From the IMG/VR virus record IMGVR_UViG_3300017713_000040: 32,143 nucleotides of DNA; one strand, 5' to 3'. Below the pieces are notes generated by a model that worked only from the letters and a program-made list of their open reading frames with translations, ran no database searches and was not told where the DNA came from. The translations under genes and the position numbers were made by a program. Shown one piece after another: positions 18,884 to 30,065 of this stretch (the first letter of the stretch is position 1; every line of letters begins with the position of its first letter). This stretch comes from a virus.

Positions 18884-19042
18884 ATGATGCTCGCAGACAG
18901 GCTGAAGAAGTCTGTCCAAGAAATATTACAACTGACAACACTGGAGATAGAGATGTGGGCAGGTTATCTGATGTATGAGGACCAAGAGAGTAAGAAGACT
19001 ATGAAGCAACAGAAACAACAAACGAAGGCTAGGAGAAGATAA
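18884..19042 (+). CDS. Tail assembly chaperone T-like segment; independent 52-aa ORF or -1 frameshift extension from 18513
   Basis: The -1 frame is open from 18821 to 19042. A candidate slip site is A_AAG at 18848-18851. The motif EIEMWAGYL is present, and there is a TAATG junction with the tape measure gene. Confidence 0.4.
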   Translation: MMLADRLKKSVQEILQLTTLEIEMWAGYLMYEDQESKKTMKQQKQQTKARRR

Positions 19043-20868
19043 TGGCGAAGACTGATCTACTGATCAACATAGCGGTCAAAAACCAACAGGCATTAGGATC
19101 AATCAATAATCAATTGACCCGAATGTCAGGTTCTGGTTTGAAACTGAGCACGGTGCTAAAAGGTGCCGCGGCTGGTTTGGCGGCCTTTGGAGCGGTTAGG
19201 ATTGGATCATTCATTGTCAACACAACTAAAGAATTTGAAGACCTAAGAACCACATTGAGTTCAGTCACAGGTAGCACTGAACAAGGTGCTGAGGCATTCA
19301 GATTCATTAGTGAGTTCGCTACCAAGACCCAGTTTGGTGTTGATGACCTAACAAAGACTTTCATCAAGTTGAAAGCGGCGGGTATTGAACCAACCGAAGA
19401 ACTTCTAACAACATTCACAGACGCGGCGGCGGTGACTAATGACCAGATAGGATCATTAGAGGCTGTCACTGACTTGTTTGCCAGAACGGTAAAAGGTGGT
19501 CTAGGACTTGAAGAGATACAGAGACTTGGAGACAGAGGTATTCCGGTGTTGGCTATCTTGGAAGAGAAACTAGGACTCAGCAGGGCAGAAATATCGGAGT
19601 TTGGTAAGACGACAGAGGGCGCCGCGGCGATAACCAAAGCATTTGCTGAAGGTATCAATGAAAGATTTGGTGGTGCGACTCAGAAATTAGTATCAAACTT
19701 ATCTACAGAATTTTCCAACGCCAAGATCGCTCTACAGGGCGTGGCGGATGAATTCGGTCAAGGTATATCACCAGCATTGAAAGATGCCGTTGGTGGATTC
19801 ACAGCATTAGTAAATGAAAACAGAGAAACAATTTCAGCACTAGGAGAACTTACAGGCTTTGCCTTGAAGGCATTAATATCTGGATTGAATCTTGTCCTCA
19901 AGGCAATTGGCAATGTCATAGACTTCTTCAAAGATTTCGTTGGCACAGTCAAAGACACAATACAGGCAGTTAAGGATTTCAAGAATGATGTAGTTAACCA
20001 ATTCGAAAATATGAAAAAAGGCATCGGAGACAAGATGTCAAATGTTGGCGACAGCATCGTAGGAGGATTTCAAGACATCTATAACAAAGTAGTTGGCAAT
20101 TCAATCGTGCCTGACATGGTCGATGATGTTGGCAAAGAGATGGACAGGTTGGCATTCAACGCCGACAGGAGTCTAGGCACATATAGCGACGCGGTTCAAG
20201 AAAACATAGACAACGATGTCATACTTCAGGCTCTACACAGAACAATAGGAGAAGGGTTCACACCATTAGAAGGCAAGATCACGGCAGTGGCGGCAGGTAT
20301 GTCAGCATTCAAAGACACAGCGTCAAGCGCCTTGACAGATGTTATAATGGGCACTAAATCATTGAGAGATGCTTTGGGTGAGATAGTAAATTCAACATTA
20401 AGAGCATTGATACAAGGTTTCATTAATTTAGGTATCACAATATTCATATTGGAACCATTAGAAAGATTTTTAAGAAGACAAGTTGACACACAGAAAAAAT
20501 TAAACAGAGAATTAAAAGTAGAGATAGCACTTAGATCTATATTGGCTATGTTTGGCGGAGGCGGCTTTGGTATTCCGTTCTTTGCTGATGGTGGTAGAAC
20601 AACTGCCAACCAACCAATCATTGTGGGTGAAAGAGGACCAGAATTATTTGTTCCAAACACTTCAGGCACAGTGGTAGCCAATGACGAACTTGGTGTCAAC
20701 AGAGGCAATGCTAGTATGGGCGGTGGCGATGACATCAATGTCACTTTCAACATCAACACACTAGACGCAAGTGATTTCGATTCATTACTAACAACAAGGC
20801 AAGACTTGATCATAGGGTTGATCAACAGAGGTCTCGCTGAAAGAGGCAAAAGGAGTCTAACAGCATAA
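19042..20868 (+). CDS. Tape measure protein
   Basis: 608 aa. It is helical and Ala/Gly/Leu-rich with hydrophobic segments, and sits in the canonical position. Confidence 0.85.
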   Translation: MAKTDLLINIAVKNQQALGSINNQLTRMSGSGLKLSTVLKGAAAGLAAFGAVRIGSFIVNTTKEFEDLRTTLSSVTGSTEQGAEAFRFISEFATKTQFGVDDLTKTFIKLKAAGIEPTEELLTTFTDAAAVTNDQIGSLEAVTDLFARTVKGGLGLEEIQRLGDRGIPVLAILEEKLGLSRAEISEFGKTTEGAAAITKAFAEGINERFGGATQKLVSNLSTEFSNAKIALQGVADEFGQGISPALKDAVGGFTALVNENRETISALGELTGFALKALISGLNLVLKAIGNVIDFFKDFVGTVKDTIQAVKDFKNDVVNQFENMKKGIGDKMSNVGDSIVGGFQDIYNKVVGNSIVPDMVDDVGKEMDRLAFNADRSLGTYSDAVQENIDNDVILQALHRTIGEGFTPLEGKITAVAAGMSAFKDTASSALTDVIMGTKSLRDALGEIVNSTLRALIQGFINLGITIFILEPLERFLRRQVDTQKKLNRELKVEIALRSILAMFGGGGFGIPFFADGGRTTANQPIIVGERGPELFVPNTSGTVVANDELGVNRGNASMGGGDDINVTFNINTLDASDFDSLLTTRQDLIIGLINRGLAERGKRSLTA

Positions 20869-21452
20869 TGGCATTATTCACACCAAACAAAGGATACAAG
20901 GCATTGGACTGGCAGTCTAACACAAAAAGCAGGGTGACGACGGCTGTGTCAGGCAAGGTGCAAAGAATTAAAACAGGCGCACAACATTGGAGTTTCAAAC
21001 TACAATCACCTTCTATGTCAAGGGCAGAGTTAATGGCTGATTATAGTTTCGTTGTTCAATTGGATGGACAGGTGACATCATTCACTATCATACCACCGGA
21101 GATAGGAAGTGCAAGAGGCACAGCATCAGGCACATTGACCAATGATGCCACAGTGGCCGCAGGACAGAGTGCCTGTCAGACAGACGGTGGGTCAGGAACA
21201 ATATTAAAGGGAGATCTAATCAAGTTTTCAAACCACGACAAGGTATACATGGTCGTAGCGGACAAAACTATCTCAGGCACAAATGACGCAATCAATTTCT
21301 ATCCACCTTTGGTGACAGGTATTACAAATTCAACCACTGTGACTTATGACAATGTCCCTGTGAAAGTTTATATGGACAAGGACGAAGTAAAATTCATCAC
21401 ACAAACGGATGGTGCCTTCAAGTATGAAATAGTTTTGAATGAGGAGATATAA
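20868..21452 (+). CDS. Distal tail / lambda M-slot minor tail protein
   Basis: 194 aa, TAATG-coupled to the tape measure gene. Confidence 0.55.
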   Translation: MALFTPNKGYKALDWQSNTKSRVTTAVSGKVQRIKTGAQHWSFKLQSPSMSRAELMADYSFVVQLDGQVTSFTIIPPEIGSARGTASGTLTNDATVAAGQSACQTDGGSGTILKGDLIKFSNHDKVYMVVADKTISGTNDAINFYPPLVTGITNSTTVTYDNVPVKVYMDKDEVKFITQTDGAFKYEIVLNEEI

Positions 21453-21454
21453 AG

Positions 21455-22036
21455 ATGGCAAGAAGTATAGCGTCAGCGACTCAGACAAAGTTAGCAGGCA
21501 GTTCAGTATTTGTTGCTGATCTGATTGAACTACAATTATCTACAACACAATACCTAACAACCACAAATATCAACATTTCATTTGATAGTGCCACGGCTCC
21601 AGACGCCGGCACACAAACTTATTTGGCACAAGGACAATTTTTAAGTTATGGCAACATCGTTGAGACAACCGACCTAAGGATAGCAGAGATAGATATGGAA
21701 TTCACCGCCGTTGACACAACAACAATCGCTCTACTGACCAACAATGATTACATCAACAAAAGGGTGGTGATCTACAGAGCAATCCTAAATGATGATTACT
21801 CATTTGGTGCCGATGATGTGTATCTTGTTTTTGATGGTAAGGTCACTGGCTATTCAATCAGAGAATCAGACACCACAGCGACGGTCACAATATCCTGTGC
21901 ATCACAGTTCGCTGACTTTGAAAGAACAAATGGGAGAAAAACAAATCCGGCTTCACAGAATGTCCATTTTGCAAATGACAAAGGGATGGAGTTCGCACCG
22001 GAGTTAGTAAAAGACATAAGATGGGGGAAAGCATAA
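21455..22036 (+). CDS. Lambda gpL-like minor tail protein, lacking the Cys-rich C-terminus
   Basis: 193 aa. VFVADLIELQL..TQYL.T.....F.....TYLAQG...YGNI.ET.DLRI..IDMEFT parallels gpL vvLwEiDLt...erYff.....v.w.G..Y.pyPi... Confidence 0.55.
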   Translation: MARSIASATQTKLAGSSVFVADLIELQLSTTQYLTTTNINISFDSATAPDAGTQTYLAQGQFLSYGNIVETTDLRIAEIDMEFTAVDTTTIALLTNNDYINKRVVIYRAILNDDYSFGADDVYLVFDGKVTGYSIRESDTTATVTISCASQFADFERTNGRKTNPASQNVHFANDKGMEFAPELVKDIRWGKA

Positions 22037-22500
22037 TGAACATAGTTAGGGTATTAGACAAAAAAGACATCACACAGGTTTTGGATCTAGCATACAGAGC
22101 CGTTGTAGAAAGAGGTTGGGTTGATAGAGATTTCGACAAGACCAATTTCAATATACAGGTAAAAAACATTTTATCTTTAGAGAGCAATCTAGCATTTGGT
22201 CTCTTCAAGGATAATGTGTTGATTGGATTTGCCGTGGCACAGTTAGATCAGTTCCCTTGGAACACAAAAAGGAAATGCCATATTGATCTGATACACATGG
22301 ACACAGAACACAGACACGAAGCATACTACCAATTGTTATTGGACACGATATATGCTTTCTGTCGAGAAAATGAAATAAGACACATCAGGACAAGTTCGGC
22401 TTCTTATCTGTTCAACAATAAACAAGATAGGATATCGTTCTTGATCAAGAATGGATTTGACGAGGTTGATATAAACTGGGAGAAGGTAAGTGACTATTAG
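22036..22500 (+). CDS. GNAT-fold protein with a degenerate acetyl-CoA (motif A) loop
   Basis: TAATG start at 22036. The GNAT strand/helix pattern is visible (VRVLDKKDITQVLDL ... NVLIGFAVAQLD ... CHIDLIHMDTEHRHEAYYQLLLDTIYAFCRENEIRHI ... FLIKNGFDEV). R/Q-x-x-G-x-G/A is replaced by HRHEAY. Confidence 0.45.
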   Translation: MNIVRVLDKKDITQVLDLAYRAVVERGWVDRDFDKTNFNIQVKNILSLESNLAFGLFKDNVLIGFAVAQLDQFPWNTKRKCHIDLIHMDTEHRHEAYYQLLLDTIYAFCRENEIRHIRTSSASYLFNNKQDRISFLIKNGFDEVDINWEKVSDY

Positions 22501-22945
22501 ACCGTTTGTAAGAAAAGATCTAAAACAATGTTGTGAAATGGCACAACAACAGCACACCGAGAGCCTGTGGAGTCATCTACACTTCGATGGTGAGCGTGTT
22601 AAAAATTATTACCTCAACAGCATTGGCAATCCAAACTTCTGTGTGTTGGTGGCGGAACAGGATGGTGAAATAATAGGCGGAACTGCCTGTGGATTGAATC
22701 AATATGATTTTTCTTACAACACCTATGTCCAAGACATTTTCTTTTATGTCAAGCCTGAATTCAGGACAGGATCATTGGGTATAAAATTATACAAACAAGT
22801 TTATGAATGGGCCAAAGAGAAAGGTGCCTGTGAAGTTTATATAGGTTATGGATTTGGCAAAAACAACAAACAGATGGAGAGGTTCTATGAAAGATTAGGA
22901 TACGAACATCACATCGATTACTACAGGAAACCAGTTATAGCATGA
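22490..22945 (+). CDS. GNAT family N-acetyltransferase
   Basis: 151 aa with a GTG start overlapping the upstream stop. Motif A is YVKPEFRTGSLGIKLYKQVYEWAKEKGA, and the C-terminal part reads N.....FYERLGYE. Confidence 0.65.
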   Translation: MTIRPFVRKDLKQCCEMAQQQHTESLWSHLHFDGERVKNYYLNSIGNPNFCVLVAEQDGEIIGGTACGLNQYDFSYNTYVQDIFFYVKPEFRTGSLGIKLYKQVYEWAKEKGACEVYIGYGFGKNNKQMERFYERLGYEHHIDYYRKPVIA

Positions 22946-25059
22946 AGATCTACAACAAGATAGTCTTTGACAAAGACGACAACATCATAGAAGAAGATTC
23001 TTATGAATACTCAGGTCCAGTGGCACATTGTGGTGGCGGCAATCCTATCAAGAAAATTTTCAATCCAATAAAAAAAGTTTTCAAAAGTATTGTAAGAGGT
23101 GTGGGTAAAGTTTTTAGTGGACTTGTTTCAGCAATTACATCACCTTTTGGTTTCGACATTGACACACCAGATTTTGGAATAGGCACAGACCAAGTATCAG
23201 ACATCCAAGGAGTGATGCTGAACAAACAGTCAGCGATAGAACACATTCCTGTTGTGTATGGCACGAGAATGGTAGGAGGCACTCGTGTTTTTGTTTCTAC
23301 AAATGGATCAAACAACAAGTATCTTTTCGTTGATATGGTTATGGCAGAAGGCCAATGTAATGGCTTCACAAAATTATTAGTTGATGACACAGAGGTGCCT
23401 TTGACTTCATATGCTCACGGTGTGGTGGCATCACCATCATCGGGAGATTTCAAAGACAGAATGAAAGTTCAGTTCTTTGATGGCAGAGACGACCAAGTCA
23501 GTGCCAGTGATGGTTCAGGAGTGTTCGCTAACATAGACAGTTCAAACGGTGCTCCCGGTTGGACCAATCTACACAGATTATCGGGACTATGCCATATCGC
23601 TTGTAGATTCGAATGGAAAGAAATCAAGTCTCAAGATGACGCAAACAACAATCCTTACACAGGTGGCATACCAAACATAAAATTAGTGCTTCAAGGCAAA
23701 AAAATATTAGATGCCACAACATTGAGTGGCAGTCATTCAACATTGTATGACAACGAGACAAAGGTGTTTGACGACAATCCTGTTTCTGTTTTGCTTGACT
23801 ACATGAGATCGAGCAGATTCGGAAAAGGCTTGGCCAATGACGCATTTGATTTCGCTAGTTTCAAGACGGCGGCGGACCTTTGTGAACAGACCGTGGCATA
23901 CACTTCTTCAACAACGGGCAAGGCATTCACTTGTAATGCAGTGGTCAATACAGCCAACAGTATCTTGGCCAATTGTAAAATATTGTTGATGGGTTTCAGA
24001 GGGATCATGCCATACCAACAGGGCAAATACAAATTACAGATCGAACACGGCGGAGACAACACAGACATCACAGCAACGCCAACCAATCCATCCACTGTAT
24101 TCTCAATCACCAATGACCATATCGTTGGGGGAATAAGTCTAGAAGGTGAACACAAGAACGCAAAGATCAATAGATGTATTGTGACCTTCGTTGATCCAGG
24201 CACAGACGACAATGTTTCATACCAACCAAACCAAGTGGTGTATCCTGAAGAAGGTAGCGCCATTGATGTGGCAATGCTGGCAGAAGATGATGGCAAAAGA
24301 TTACAGAAAGAGATCGTGTTGCCAACGGTGACCAGCAGAGAACAGGCCTTACAATATGGAGAAGTATTCACCAAGAGATCAAGGACTTCAAAATATGTGA
24401 CATTCGGCACGACACTGGCAACATCGAACACAGGTGTTGGTGACCTAATCAACATTGAAAATGAACACATAGGATTGAATGGTATATTCAGAATAGTTGA
24501 AATGAAGATAGATGCCGGTGGTGACATAATCATCGGTGCTGTTGAACACCAGCCAACAAACTATGAGATAGCGGCAAAATCAATAGCGGCCACTAGGCCA
24601 ATCATAAATTTACCAAACCCAATTGGCTTGGTCAATCCGCCAACAGGCATCGTTTACACATCTTTTGGTTTTTCAGGTGCAGGTGTGATCACCTTAGTGG
24701 TTAGACCCATTGGTGAGATTAGGTTTTCGCCAAGCACTGACACAAACATCACTCATTATAGGTTTGGCGTCAAGATGAAAGGTTCTACAGAATCAGAGGT
24801 AAATTATTTTGACAAATCTGTATCAACTTTGACCTTTGACAGCACCAATAATCAATTTGTCTATCAGTTGATGGCGTCGGATGTCAAGACCAAAGGCGGT
24901 GTAGATGCAGAAGGCACGATTAGAATATATGCTATCAACAACCAAGGCAACCAATCCGCACCAGCGGAGTTGGTCGTGGCCAAGATAGCATCTATAAAAC
25001 AGAATGTTGTGACTCAACAGGTCACACAGTCATCAACCAATGTTAATTTGAACCCATAG
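22942..25059 (+). CDS. Central tail fibre / host specificity protein (lambda J-like) with a gpI-like N-terminal segment
   Basis: 705 aa. IPVVYGTRMVGGTRVF resembles the gpI C-terminal LPVLYGEMRVGSRVV. NPVSVLLDYMRSSRFGKGL..DAFDFASF..AADLCEQTV resembles J NNMAWCLWDMLTHPRYGMGKRLG...CDQSV. Further J-like blocks follow. Confidence 0.8.
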   Translation: MKIYNKIVFDKDDNIIEEDSYEYSGPVAHCGGGNPIKKIFNPIKKVFKSIVRGVGKVFSGLVSAITSPFGFDIDTPDFGIGTDQVSDIQGVMLNKQSAIEHIPVVYGTRMVGGTRVFVSTNGSNNKYLFVDMVMAEGQCNGFTKLLVDDTEVPLTSYAHGVVASPSSGDFKDRMKVQFFDGRDDQVSASDGSGVFANIDSSNGAPGWTNLHRLSGLCHIACRFEWKEIKSQDDANNNPYTGGIPNIKLVLQGKKILDATTLSGSHSTLYDNETKVFDDNPVSVLLDYMRSSRFGKGLANDAFDFASFKTAADLCEQTVAYTSSTTGKAFTCNAVVNTANSILANCKILLMGFRGIMPYQQGKYKLQIEHGGDNTDITATPTNPSTVFSITNDHIVGGISLEGEHKNAKINRCIVTFVDPGTDDNVSYQPNQVVYPEEGSAIDVAMLAEDDGKRLQKEIVLPTVTSREQALQYGEVFTKRSRTSKYVTFGTTLATSNTGVGDLINIENEHIGLNGIFRIVEMKIDAGGDIIIGAVEHQPTNYEIAAKSIAATRPIINLPNPIGLVNPPTGIVYTSFGFSGAGVITLVVRPIGEIRFSPSTDTNITHYRFGVKMKGSTESEVNYFDKSVSTLTFDSTNNQFVYQLMASDVKTKGGVDAEGTIRIYAINNQGNQSAPAELVVAKIASIKQNVVTQQVTQSSTNVNLNP

Positions 25060-27693: not shown

Positions 27694-28017
27694 ATGTCAG
27701 ATTTCATAGAACACAACAGACAGAATCACCCAGCGGTGTTGGAACGGGTAAGGAACAACATCATTAGAGAAAGCCAGAACTATGATCGTTGGGAAGAGTT
27801 CATTAAACAGGCCAAATACAACATTCACAGATTCGTCGATGGTGTAGTGGACATAGATCAAGAAGGTTATGAACCAGCACCACAGATCAGAGAAGTCTAC
27901 ATGGATGTGGATGAATGGATGGAAACACGCCATTTCTTATTATGGTTGGCAGAAGGCAAGAACAAACCCAAGTGGTTGGAAAAGGAGTTGGTTTGGCAAC
28001 TACTGAAAGCAGAATAA
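27694..28017 (+). CDS. Hypothetical early protein
   Basis: 107-aa ORF with no SD (A-rich leader). Its 3' end overlaps the methyltransferase frame. Confidence 0.5.
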   Translation: MSDFIEHNRQNHPAVLERVRNNIIRESQNYDRWEEFIKQAKYNIHRFVDGVVDIDQEGYEPAPQIREVYMDVDEWMETRHFLLWLAEGKNKPKWLEKELVWQLLKAE

Positions 28018-29192
28018 TCAACGGCGACTCAGCCATCGAACTCAAGAAGTTCGCAGACAATTCAATTGATGCTGTCATAACAGATCCACCATATGGCATA
28101 GAATTTTTAGCAAAGGATTGGGACCGAAACACAGGCGCAGTGGAGATATGGCAGGAATGTCTCAGGGTATTGAAGCCAGGTGGATTCCTGTTGGCCTTTT
28201 CGGCGGCAAGGACCTATCACAAACTGGCCACCAACATTGAATCAGTGGGATTTGAGATCAGGGATCAGATAATGTGGCTGTATGCTTCAGGATTCCCCAA
28301 GGCACAGGACATAGGCAAAGCAATCCAAAGACGACAGGGTGTTGAAGAGACAATGTCATTGGAAGAGTATGAAAAATTAACGGGTGTGACCAATCTTCCT
28401 AAAGGCAATCAAACATTTGGACACAACGACGACACAGATGGACAAAAATCTGCAGGATTGAGTGGACGGATAACCATACCCACATCACCAGAAGCACAAA
28501 AGTGGTCAGGTTGGAAGACACAATTAAAGCCAGCACACGAACCCATATGTATGGCAAGAAAACCATTCAAAGGTAGTCACATAGACAATGTATTAAAACA
28601 CGGTGTTGGAGCATTAAACATAGATGAGTCAAGGATACCATATATGGATGCAGGCGAGATCAACCCTTGCATCCCCCAAGCAGGTCGTAGGACAGCGTCA
28701 TTTTCATTTGGTCATAAACCAACACAATCAGGTGGTGATGGATCTCCAGAATTTGTTGCCAATGAAAAAGGTAGATTCCCTTCAAATGTGATAGGTGAAG
28801 TAGAAGGTTATCAAAAGTTCTTTTATTGTCCTAAAGTTAGTAGAAAAGAAAGAAATCTAGGTTGTGAAGATATAGAAGCAAAACCATTGTTCAAAGACCG
28901 CCACCGAGACGCAAAAGCATTGGGCAGTTGGGCGGACAAACGAGACCAAGCACACAGGAACCATCATCCAACTGTGAAACCTGTGGCATTAATGAAGTAT
29001 TTGGTGAATTTGGTCACCCCTTTAAACACACACATATTGGATCCATTCGCGGGATCAGGCACAACGGGCATGGCCTGTAAAGAACTGGGCAGGAGTTTCA
29101 CGGGCATAGAGCAGGATCCAGCATATTGTGACATAGCAAGACGCAGGATATCTGCAACAAAAACAGACCCTAAAAACTGCCTTTTCGAGTAG
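27993..29192 (+). CDS. Beta-class (motif IV before motif I) N6-adenine/N4-cytosine DNA methyltransferase, orphan
   Basis: Motif IV is AVITDPPYGIEF and motif I is ILDPFAGSGTTGMACKELGRSFTGIEQD. The preferred start is TTG 27993, 5 nt after AAGGAG (27982-27987). The alternative ATGs at 27915 and 27942 lack an SD. Confidence 0.85.
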   Translation: MATTESRIINGDSAIELKKFADNSIDAVITDPPYGIEFLAKDWDRNTGAVEIWQECLRVLKPGGFLLAFSAARTYHKLATNIESVGFEIRDQIMWLYASGFPKAQDIGKAIQRRQGVEETMSLEEYEKLTGVTNLPKGNQTFGHNDDTDGQKSAGLSGRITIPTSPEAQKWSGWKTQLKPAHEPICMARKPFKGSHIDNVLKHGVGALNIDESRIPYMDAGEINPCIPQAGRRTASFSFGHKPTQSGGDGSPEFVANEKGRFPSNVIGEVEGYQKFFYCPKVSRKERNLGCEDIEAKPLFKDRHRDAKALGSWADKRDQAHRNHHPTVKPVALMKYLVNLVTPLNTHILDPFAGSGTTGMACKELGRSFTGIEQDPAYCDIARRRISATKTDPKNCLFE

Positions 29193-29306: not shown

Positions 29307-30065
29307 ATGTTAGAAAAGAGCACAAAAAAACAATATCCGTTTACACTACAGGCGGACGCAACTTTTAGGTTTGAGCCAGTAGGCGAACAATTGGCTGAAT
29401 GGCGAGAGATGGTAGGTAATTTCTACAAAGATTACCTTGACGCAGGTGATTCATTGAGTGATGAAGCCGGAAGGGGAACCGCGATGATCATACCGGGTTT
29501 GACAGATGACATACACGATTATCTAGTCAAAATAGGTGATGACACAGTTGGTTGGGTTACCATTAAGAGTATGGACGCAATCTTAAACGGTCAGTCAGTA
29601 GGTGAAGATACACGGATAGAAAATGTGTATGTGAAGCCAGAATTCAGAGGCTTTGGTATAGCACAAAGGATCTACGAGAAATGTATCAACGAACACCATG
29701 CCACACAGATACATTTAAGTTTCGCTAGGATTTCAGGCCCTAACAACCAGCAGTATTGGAAGTCAATTGGTTTCAACTTTGTTTCAATCCAGTTGGGCCA
29801 GATGGGTGGCAGACAGGCCCTATGTGCTTTGTTGACAGAATTACCACCAGCGCCTGCCATGAAAGGCCTGTATCATTGGTTAGACAGGGATGGCGTCAAA
29901 AACGCCAAGAGATTCAGTGAGAAGGTTGCTAAAGCCTATATGAGAATGACAGGTAGAAGCAGTGATGAATTACAAGTGAACCAGCACCTTTTGAGACCGG
30001 TGCTAGAACGGATCAATCACAAAGTAGAATACCTTAACCCAGAAATTTTAGAAGAGTATGTATAA
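29307..30065 (+). CDS. GNAT family N-acetyltransferase with a ~90-aa C-terminal extension
   Basis: Motif A is VYVKPEFRGFGIAQRIYEKC. GGGAG lies 5 nt before the ATG at 29307. An in-frame leaderless alternative start is at 29289. The ORF-track start at 29238 lies upstream of the promoter. Confidence 0.7.
   Translation: MLEKSTKKQYPFTLQADATFRFEPVGEQLAEWREMVGNFYKDYLDAGDSLSDEAGRGTAMIIPGLTDDIHDYLVKIGDDTVGWVTIKSMDAILNGQSVGEDTRIENVYVKPEFRGFGIAQRIYEKCINEHHATQIHLSFARISGPNNQQYWKSIGFNFVSIQLGQMGGRQALCALLTELPPAPAMKGLYHWLDRDGVKNAKRFSEKVAKAYMRMTGRSSDELQVNQHLLRPVLERINHKVEYLNPEILEEYV

Follow-up and report, generated by a model that had tools for sequence, protein, structure and literature searches.

Why would a tailed phage keep two acetyltransferase-like genes, one of them degenerate, in the middle of its tail-tip genes? 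The question is raised by IMGVR_UViG_3300017713_000040, a viral stretch of 32,143 nucleotides (the window, to whose full length all positions refer), in which the gene order is tape measure (PF20155), Dit/pb9-like (phrog_1302), L-like (PF09931, phrog_2048), GNAT-A, GNAT-B and J-like (PF13550, phrog_31). GNAT-A (22036..22500, + strand) is a degenerate GNAT paralogue and probably a non-catalytic partner; GNAT-B (22490..22945, + strand) is an intact GNAT and the probable catalytic subunit. The J-like central hub or tail-tip protein encoded directly downstream (705 residues; 22942..25059, + strand; PF13550, phrog_31, phrog_5616) is their proposed substrate. According to the reading that we tentatively prefer, and that we hold at slightly under an even chance, GNAT-B and its non-catalytic partner GNAT-A acetylate or acylate the N-terminal region of the J-like protein during assembly.

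Both open reading frames (ORFs) encode GNAT folds, as a first-pass annotation of the window had proposed. Each passes the gathering cut-off of Pfam Acetyltransf_1 (PF00583, 20.7 bits), GNAT-A with 23.6 bits (E 6.8e-5) and GNAT-B with 52.1 bits (E 1e-13), and each matches phrog_1249, 'acetyltransferase' (E 2e-10 and E 2e-30, respectively). AlphaFold2 (AF2) models built from family alignments reached predicted local distance difference test (pLDDT) scores of 90.3 for GNAT-A and 92.3 for GNAT-B, and both follow the GNAT element order, beta1-alpha1-alpha2-beta2-4-alpha3-beta5-alpha4-beta6/7. At E<=1e-3, GNAT-A has 663 and GNAT-B 852 structure matches in the PDB, and all 50 matches listed for each protein are members of the GNAT family. 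Divergent gpK/gpI-type proteins, the outcome named beforehand as speaking against this assignment, were ruled out by Pfam, PHROG, AF2 and Foldseek. Indeed, fold prediction gives a GNAT for both ORFs, and neither has a Pfam or PHROG match to K/I-type families, to HlyC (PF02794) or to Phage_T7_Gp13 (PF11090). The structural neighbours include the polyamine and aminoglycoside acetyltransferases DpA, PaiA, SpeG and AAC(6') among the top matches, but also the N-terminal acetyltransferases RimI, Naa50, Naa60 and NatD. Since these classes are intermixed, the fold is uninformative on the class of substrate.

GNAT-A and GNAT-B are separate ORFs in different frames, and not a two-domain single polypeptide of the MshD or N-myristoyltransferase (NMT) type. 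In homologue searches, all 28 clusters of the A family and all 55 of the B family were single-domain proteins of 83-173 residues. Three larger proteins (P0085, P0095 and P0109, 318-371 residues) carry two tandem B-type GNAT domains per polypeptide, and both halves of these fusions keep the R-G-x-x-L-A/S motif. Among the best 150 family representatives, GNATs were fused to other GNATs only, and none to a structural protein.

The two genes are paralogues, each being the nearest relative of the other. Alignment of the A and B orthologue families with hhalign gave a probability of 98.5% (E 1.6e-15, 146 columns), and GNAT-A of the window scores 52 bits on the hidden Markov model (HMM) of the B family, against 8 bits for a third GNAT of the window; the pair is thus attributed to a tandem duplication in place. 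The single slot GNAT of the freshwater phage DSL-LC06 scores near-equally on both profiles (47 and 42 bits), as expected of a pre-duplication form.

The copies differ most clearly in the loop that should bind coenzyme A (CoA). The beta4-alpha3 loop of GNAT-B reads R-T-G-S-L-G, with the glycines shifted by one relative to the canonical form of motif A, Q/R-x-x-G-x-G/A, and the consensus of the B clade is R-K-G-x-x-A; one large B subtype has no glycine in this loop (ERKSIFVP). The motif had been called intact, which stands in so far as R-T-G-S-L-G is near-canonical, but not in the strict sense, given the departure from the canonical pattern and the glycine-free subtype. Two residues of GNAT-B, D82 and R92, do not vary in either family alignment. 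At the level of the clade, Y86, P89 and E115 are constant as well, and so is Y133, in helix alpha4, across the broader family alignment. GNAT-A has R-H-E-A-Y-Y at the loop, and a glycine is found there in 0 of about 35 orthologues (HRHEAY, HRNPAY, YRSEEN, YNNNQT and others). It also lacks the residues that are invariant in GNAT-B. This degeneracy, in a protein that is nevertheless conserved, fits the earlier suggestion of a pseudo-enzyme partner.

Both genes are under strong purifying selection. For A, the ratio of nonsynonymous to synonymous substitution rates (dN/dS) is 0.04-0.16, and for B it is 0.05-0.20; most of these values are near those of L (0.03-0.09) and J (0.05-0.12). A decaying pseudogene is therefore rejected for GNAT-A, which persists across more than 40 loci, at identities as low as about 20%. 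The two copies conserve different parts of the fold. In GNAT-A, conservation is highest in helix alpha2, on the acceptor side, with strand beta4 equally conserved, whereas GNAT-B is most strongly conserved across the alpha3-beta5-alpha4 CoA core and, among its helices, least in alpha2. This complementarity matches the prediction of subfunctionalisation into a catalytic and a non-catalytic subunit, and on this conservation pattern GNAT-A is probably the non-catalytic partner of GNAT-B. As a separate observation, the loci L008 and L009 have near-identical L and A genes (dS 0.02-0.03) and divergent B genes (dN 0.26, dS 1.3), which places a recombination breakpoint between A and B in this comparison.

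To our knowledge, the clade of the window has no cultured member. Its nearest cultured relatives are the HTVC111P-type pelagiphages, a group described as globally abundant (bioRxiv 10.1101/2019.12.14.876532). An IMG/VR search with the L-like protein yielded 51 loci and a second search, seeded by the B family, 80 loci; overall, about 150 related phage loci were compared, 68 of which are distinct loci running from L to J (locus numbers are given as L001 and so on). In this synteny survey, over 40 uncultured phages related to the HTVC111P type had the A and B pair, under purifying selection, so that it is neither a chance nor a transient feature. Where the sequence reaches, both genes are tightly packed between L and J in nearly all loci with an L identity of at least 50%. 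Among the 68 distinct loci, the slot holds A and B in 30, a B-type GNAT alone in 25 (HTVC202P-like), a cupin and B in four, an HlyC-type acyltransferase alone in three (the cultured HTVC111P, HTVC026P and HTVC112P), A and an HlyC-type protein in two (L012 and L015; PF02794, 44 bits), and the degenerate A alone in one (L030); it is empty in the remaining three. The HlyC-type slot proteins of the relatives score 44-60 bits on PF02794. Their catalytic histidine, as known from ApxC/HlyC, appears to be missing according to a manual alignment only, the HMMER alignment covering ApxC residues 44-129. The L-J slot of this lineage is an 'acyltransferase slot', ancestrally either empty or acyltransferase-filled. 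Since an HlyC-type protein replaces B beside A in L012 and L015, and since HlyC enzymes acylate an adjacently encoded protein, it can be argued that acyl transfer is the selected function.

The locus had been likened to the lambda K/I slot. The analogy of position holds, but no K/I-type protein occupies the L-J slot in the relatives examined, and in the closest outgroups (HTVC202P and L050-L053) no gene lies between L and J. A more distant Pseudomonas phage has a DUF6950 protein at this position. The cupin found in four loci is a protein of 161 residues (EHTHPDVD...HGG) encoded between the L-like protein and a single B-type GNAT (L083:3777-4262, L127:4515-5000, L136:3371-3856 and L138:3550-4035). 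Its match to PCO_ADO, the N-terminal cysteine dioxygenases, is sub-threshold (E 4e-4, 20 bits, for a cut-off of 27), and the J protein starts with Met-Cys in all four loci.

What distinguishes the neighbour of the B-type GNATs is its N-terminus. After clustering of the GNATs at 70% identity, the gene directly following a B-type GNAT starts with Met-Cys in 13 of the 32 clusters; the others show a leader followed by Cys-Gly-Gly (5/32), Met-Gly (7/32) or other starts (7/32). Cysteine is found at position 2 in only 8 of 1013 other ATG-start ORFs of the same loci (0.8%). The enrichment of Met-Cys has a binomial p of about 1e-19 (2e-11 with clusters at 50%), although these counts overstate independence, because the loci are related and the search was seeded from the patterns of one B subtype. 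Within the L-J loci, a Cys-type N-terminus of J accompanies a B-type GNAT in 46 of 59 cases and is found in none of the nine loci without one (Fisher p 1e-5); when the slot is empty or holds HlyC only, A and HlyC or A only, J always starts with Met-Gly. Met-Cys heads three unrelated J N-termini, namely acidic (MCPNPIDLIED), hydrophobic (MCPSPSSIID...ALGVFAIGWLF) and glycine-rich (MCGGGGGNIID) ones. It also recurs in contexts without L and J genes: L060 (MCGGGGGIPVVDD), L071 (MCGSPEPPPP), L082, L090 and L095 (MCGGGNP), and L121, L124, L134 and L143. In such contexts, 9 of 10 Met-Cys downstream proteins have no PHROG or Pfam match. Elsewhere, a leader of 20-30 residues precedes a cysteine and a glycine run, as in L061 (...EPFTLYC|GGGG) and in L075, L081 and L129 (...ICFC|GGG). 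One of the downstream proteins has a transglycosylase domain and another a weak match to P22 gp7, so that they resemble ejection proteins. In the literature searched, the association between a B-type GNAT and a Cys-first or Gly-first neighbour is undescribed, and nothing relevant was found on phage tail or ejection proteins that are acylated or acetylated at an N-terminal cysteine.

The J-like protein of the window belongs to the leader type. It starts with MKIYNKIVFDKDDNIIEEDSYEYSGPVAHC|GGGNP, in which a leader of 29 residues (MKIYNKIVFDKDDNIIEEDSYEYSGPVAH; 22942..23028, + strand) precedes Cys30, encoded by the codon 23029..23031. The leader is kept in L004, L006, L014, L031, L033 and L035 and is absent from relatives starting with MGG or MC, whose starts align with Cys30 of the window. 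The Cys30-Gly-Gly-Gly segment (23029..23040, + strand) is the proposed site of modification or processing, its cysteine being present in all leader-bearing relatives. In L021 (7053-7712), L025 and L027, a Hint (intein-like) domain follows 'MGGGS' at the N-terminus of J, precedes 'KGGGG' and occupies the position of the leader/Cys site (Vint PF14623, 32 bits; Hom_end_hint, 32 bits). Canonical splicing of this domain seems unlikely since the +1 residue is a lysine. Furthermore, in contigs with SU10-type capsid genes (L061, L062, L118 and L119), a 156-residue ORF of no assigned family overlaps and precedes the B-type GNAT. In L061 (5538-7604) the GNAT is followed by a protein of 381 residues with the leader ...LYC|GGGG and, at its C-terminus, a weak sub-threshold P22 gp7/Gly-zipper match. 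The 156-residue ORF of L061 was considered as a second degenerate GNAT and discarded, having no detectable similarity.

The genes of the pair overlap each other and their neighbours, and the TAATG, overlapping GTG and ATGA arrangements read from the window at first pass were confirmed to the nucleotide. The stop codon TAA of the L-like gene (22034-22036) overlaps the ATG of GNAT-A at 22036; the GTG start of GNAT-B at 22490, preceded by the Shine-Dalgarno-like run GAGAAGG, overlaps the end of GNAT-A by 11 nucleotides (stop TAG, 22498-22500); and the TGA of GNAT-B (22943-22945) overlaps the J-like ATG at 22942. The start of GNAT-A is ambiguous, an in-frame ATG being present also at 22021, and this is the sole possible start in many orthologues. 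No promoter- or terminator-like signal above chance was detected around the pair. The two GNATs are translationally coupled and co-expressed with the tail-tip genes, as had been supposed.

How could such a pair act? GNAT-B would be the acyl-CoA-dependent catalytic subunit, and GNAT-A a duplicate stripped of its CoA-binding and catalytic signature, probably serving on the acceptor-binding side. Acylation of the N-terminus of the J-like hub would take place in the cytoplasm, late in infection. The target in the window would be Cys30-Gly-Gly-Gly, once the 29-residue leader is lost, and in leaderless relatives the N-terminal cysteine or glycine; removal of the leader, or the action of methionine aminopeptidase, could expose these residues. 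Either of them, once N-terminal, is a chemically natural acceptor, with its low-pKa amine and, for cysteine, a possible S-to-N acyl shift. The modification may ready an amphipathic N-terminal segment to be built into the tail tip or to insert into the host envelope, possibly through removal of a charge or through lipidation. Among the three roles offered at first pass, modification of tail proteins is the one now favoured. Because the acyl donors, acetyl-CoA and acyl-acyl carrier protein (acyl-ACP), are cytoplasmic, acetylation of the peptidoglycan or of the cell envelope at entry is unlikely.

Several observations, besides the relatedness of the loci counted, weigh against modification of the hub by the GNAT pair. 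HTVC202P and L050-L053 build this tail with an empty slot, so that assembly can proceed without the enzyme. The cysteine is not obligatory either, since J starts with Met-Gly in eight loci with A and B and in all HlyC loci, and Cys30 of the window is internal unless the putative leader is removed. An SP6-like GNAT homologue lies just before the portal gene, outside the tail module, and HTVC103P carries its HlyC-like gene in the early region. Finally, the best structural matches include polyamine and aminoglycoside acetyltransferases, and our own profile comparisons gave no link of T7 gp13 or P22 gp14 to the B family.

The slot proteins could instead be non-enzymatic assembly factors, that is, chaperones or scaffolds that load the hub or an ejection protein into the tail tip, with an acyltransferase fold that is vestigial in both GNATs. 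The missing CoA-loop glycines in every A orthologue and likewise in the large B subtype, the seemingly absent catalytic histidine of the phage HlyC-like proteins (manual alignment only) and the retention of the degenerate A alone in L030 all agree with this explanation, as does T7 gp13, which is described as a scaffold or assembly protein in Pfam ('probable scaffold protein') and in the literature (PMC4819975). We nevertheless consider it unlikely. GNAT-B conserves precisely the CoA-binding core and the acidic beta4 residue D82, and the subtype of the window keeps Tyr133; the swap of B for an HlyC family would be hard to explain without acyl transfer; and the excess of Cys and Gly at position 2 of the neighbour suggests N-terminal chemistry.

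Alternatively, the GNATs could be accessory enzymes of the 'moron' type, directed at a small molecule or a host target (a polyamine or antibiotic-like amine, a host protein, tRNA or a defence system), their position at a permissive junction being incidental. DpA, PaiA, SpeG and AAC(6') are indeed the top PDB neighbours, the GC content of the pair dips slightly (0.38 against 0.42-0.45 in the neighbouring genes), the slot is empty in some relatives, homologues lie outside tail modules in other phages, and published annotations call the slot genes auxiliary metabolic genes (PMC10611076, PMC6918029). Yet across about 70 distinct loci the filled slots hold only proteins of the acyltransferase superfamily plus one cupin, purifying selection matches that on the structural genes, and the Met-Cys or leader-Cys start of the neighbour in unrelated phage types would be left unexplained. 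A recent moron with its own signals was rejected, there being no excess of promoters or terminators and only a small GC dip, and accessory enzymes in general seem distinctly unlikely. AcrVA5 is a phage GNAT-type anti-CRISPR that modifies a host defence protein, and one or both GNATs might similarly be packed at the tail tip, ejected and modify a host component, such as a defence protein, with host acetyl-CoA. The genes are embedded among, and co-translated with, those of tail-tip and ejection proteins, and phage GNATs acting as anti-CRISPR or host-shutoff enzymes are known (AcrVA5, and Rac, PMC7552054). However, such a virion-borne effector is quite improbable. T7 internal virion protein A (IVP-A), the closest described analogue, reportedly does not stay in virions, and the genes occupying its position in the phiRIO-1 group are termed non-structural (PMC4819975), which leaves the earlier idea of assembly into the virion unsupported; GNAT-structural protein fusions are absent from the best 150 family representatives, and the N-terminal cysteine pattern would again go unexplained.

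The comparison with IVP-A brings the proposed modification of the hub into a wider context. By HHpred, T7 IVP-A (gp13) was reported to match acetyltransferases (Hardies et al. 2016, PMC4819975); the protein is described as needed for morphogenesis but not retained in virions (PMC4819975, citing Kemp 2005), the phiRIO-1-group genes at its position are called non-structural, and homologues of IVP-A and IVP-B, in the same order, were noted in P22 and epsilon15 (PMC4819975). A cobavirus GNAT was suggested to be the counterpart of T7 gp13 (Bischoff et al. 2019, PMC6775973). We found that the GNAT of the cobavirus ICBM1, a Lentibacter phage, scores 86 bits on the B-family HMM; in cobaviruses the B-family GNAT has tail tubular protein B on one side and internal virion protein B on the other. 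T7 gp14 starts with MCWAAAIPIA and is encoded directly after the gp13 (PF11090) gene (L064:3308-4319). Met-Cys heads gp14 in six of eight diverse T7-like phages, Vibrio and Pseudomonas phages included (L064 and L144-L150): T7, T3, DchS19, PSTCR2, KNP and VP4, whereas gp14 as annotated in PPpW-4 and SD6 lacks it. All of these phages have gp14 immediately behind their gp13 gene. In P22, gene 14 (151 residues, annotated 'head morphogenesis') directly precedes gene 7 (L152:8911-10058), and gp7 has, according to the record annotation, a 20-residue leader cleaved by the host OpdA, with a mature start KGGKGG.

At the level of sequence the GNATs and gp13 could not be connected. The hhalign probability of T7 gp13 against the A and B families was below 8%, and Pfam at E<=10 and HMM searches were also negative; its only weak phmmer match was to spermidine acetyltransferases (E 0.4). 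Among the 50 best BFVD matches to the B model, no protein bore the name T7 gp13, and P22 gp14 matched neither of the A and B family HMMs. Since our own profile searches gave no connection, the link of gp13 to acetyltransferases rests on Hardies et al. (PMC4819975), and no paper in the literature searched ties IVP-A to the N-terminal residue of its neighbour. A general maturation module 'acyltransferase then Cys-first protein' is possible but rather doubtful. In this extension, many tailed phages would carry a GNAT- or HlyC-type acyltransferase that acetylates or acylates, possibly lipidating it, the N-terminal Cys or Gly of an envelope-penetrating virion protein, the N-terminus being exposed by removal of Met, by leader cleavage or by a Hint domain. 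The module would span siphovirus-type hubs, T7 (gp13/gp14), P22 (gp14/gp7) and many marine podoviruses, with a heterodimer including a pseudo-enzyme subunit in the clade of the window.

The genes upstream of the pair make up a tape-measure-type tail tip. The tape measure protein (608 residues; 19042..20868, + strand) matches PF20155, TMP_3 (E 3e-17), and phrog_973. Next comes a distal tail protein that resembles pb9 of T5 (Dit; 20868..21452, + strand; phrog_1302, E 4e-25), which had been placed in the 'M-slot' at first pass and whose match to the pb9 B domain PF21430 is just sub-threshold (26.9 bits, cut-off 27). The L-like protein (21455..22036, + strand; phrog_2048, E 1e-29), a baseplate-hub N-terminal attachment domain, is sub-threshold on PF09931 (22.8 bits, cut-off 26) and shares 35% identity with a HTVC202P protein annotated 'minor tail protein L'. 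The third GNAT, noted near 29307, proved to be a real domain (Pfam E 1.2e-6). It covers residues 93-187 of a 275-residue protein (ORF 29238/29307..30065, probable start 29307) and represents an unrelated GNAT lineage, given its score of just 8 bits against the B-family HMM; its ORF adjoins a DNA methyltransferase-like ORF (27915..29192) in a non-structural region.

Two further observations concern the relatives. Like siphoviruses, both the HTVC111P-type phages (L001, L055-L057) and the window have genes for a tape measure, a distal tail protein and a split hub. From electron microscopy, however, the HTVC111P-type phages were described as podoviruses (bioRxiv 10.1101/2019.12.14.876532), so that their morphology and gene content seem to be at odds. 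HlyC-like genes are also present in the 54-kb pelagiphages HTVC103P, HTVC104P and HTVC115P; the only context examined is that of HTVC103P (L059:6980-7429), where the gene lies in the early/replication region before those for single-stranded DNA-binding protein, primase and DNA polymerase, outside any virion module.

That infectious particles require IVP-A proteins such as T7 gp13 and P22 gp14 was established decades ago, but these proteins have no assigned mechanism. The B family fronts the hub protein in a large, globally abundant marine phage group, can be swapped for an HlyC type, and has a mostly Cys- or Gly-first neighbour, which makes the proposal directly testable in T7. If true, phages would chemically modify the tip of their penetration machinery, with consequences for how the membrane insertion of DNA channels is understood and for how hundreds of 'auxiliary metabolic' virome GNATs are annotated. 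The pair would also offer a compact natural case of an enzyme/pseudo-enzyme partnership arising from tandem duplication.

Which known system does the pair resemble most? The slot of lambda gpK/gpI and of g14 in gene transfer agents (GTAs) holds small enzymes or assembly factors, not major structural proteins, and the window shares with lambda gpK/gpI and the GTA g14 NlpC/P60 peptidase the tail-tip position between L or the hub N-terminal protein and J. Their folds are NlpC/P60 plus JAB and ubiquitin-like, whereas that of the window is a GNAT. The toxin-activating acyltransferases HlyC and ApxC have a GNAT-like fold and are encoded directly upstream of the protein that they acylate (hlyC-hlyA); they use acyl-ACP as donor and modify internal lysines. 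HlyC-family genes occupy the same L-J slot in HTVC111P, HTVC026P, HTVC112P, L012 and L015, but the GNATs of the window lie outside the HlyC family, with no PF02794 match. Dedicated GNAT-fold N-terminal acyltransferases are well known (RimI/J/L, NMT and the N-terminal acetyltransferases). As in MshD and NMT, an intact GNAT unit stands beside a degenerate one in the window, and fused two-GNAT relatives of B exist; unlike in these enzymes, the units of the window are separate ORFs, and the fused relatives keep the motif in both halves. The acylation proposed here, at the N-terminal Gly or Cys of one specific protein, would be similar to that by NMT and the Rim enzymes. Beyond the shared fold, however, MshD/NMT, RimI/RimJ/RimL and Naa50/60 have no specific sequence relation to the GNATs of the window.

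MshD had been the comparison chosen at first pass, and the acetyltransferase-like IVP-A genes that precede podovirus ejection proteins fit better. This group comprises T7 gp13, P22 gp14, SIO1 pc40 and the cobavirus GNAT. The window differs from it in having a siphovirus-type tail tip with tape measure, Dit and hub instead of a podovirus core, a J-like hub instead of IVP-B as the downstream partner, a gene duplicated into an intact and a degenerate copy, and GNATs with no detectable sequence link to PF11090 or P22 gp14. On the other hand, the GNATs share with IVP-A a length of about 140-150 residues, an acetyltransferase fold and a position directly upstream of, and co-oriented with, an envelope-penetrating virion protein. 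The leader and Cys-Gly start of the J-like protein likewise recall the Met-Cys of T7 gp14 and the cleaved leader and Gly-rich start of P22 gp7. The pair would thus be of the acetyltransferase-like IVP-A kind, placed in a tape-measure-type tail tip and duplicated there into an enzyme and a pseudo-enzyme.

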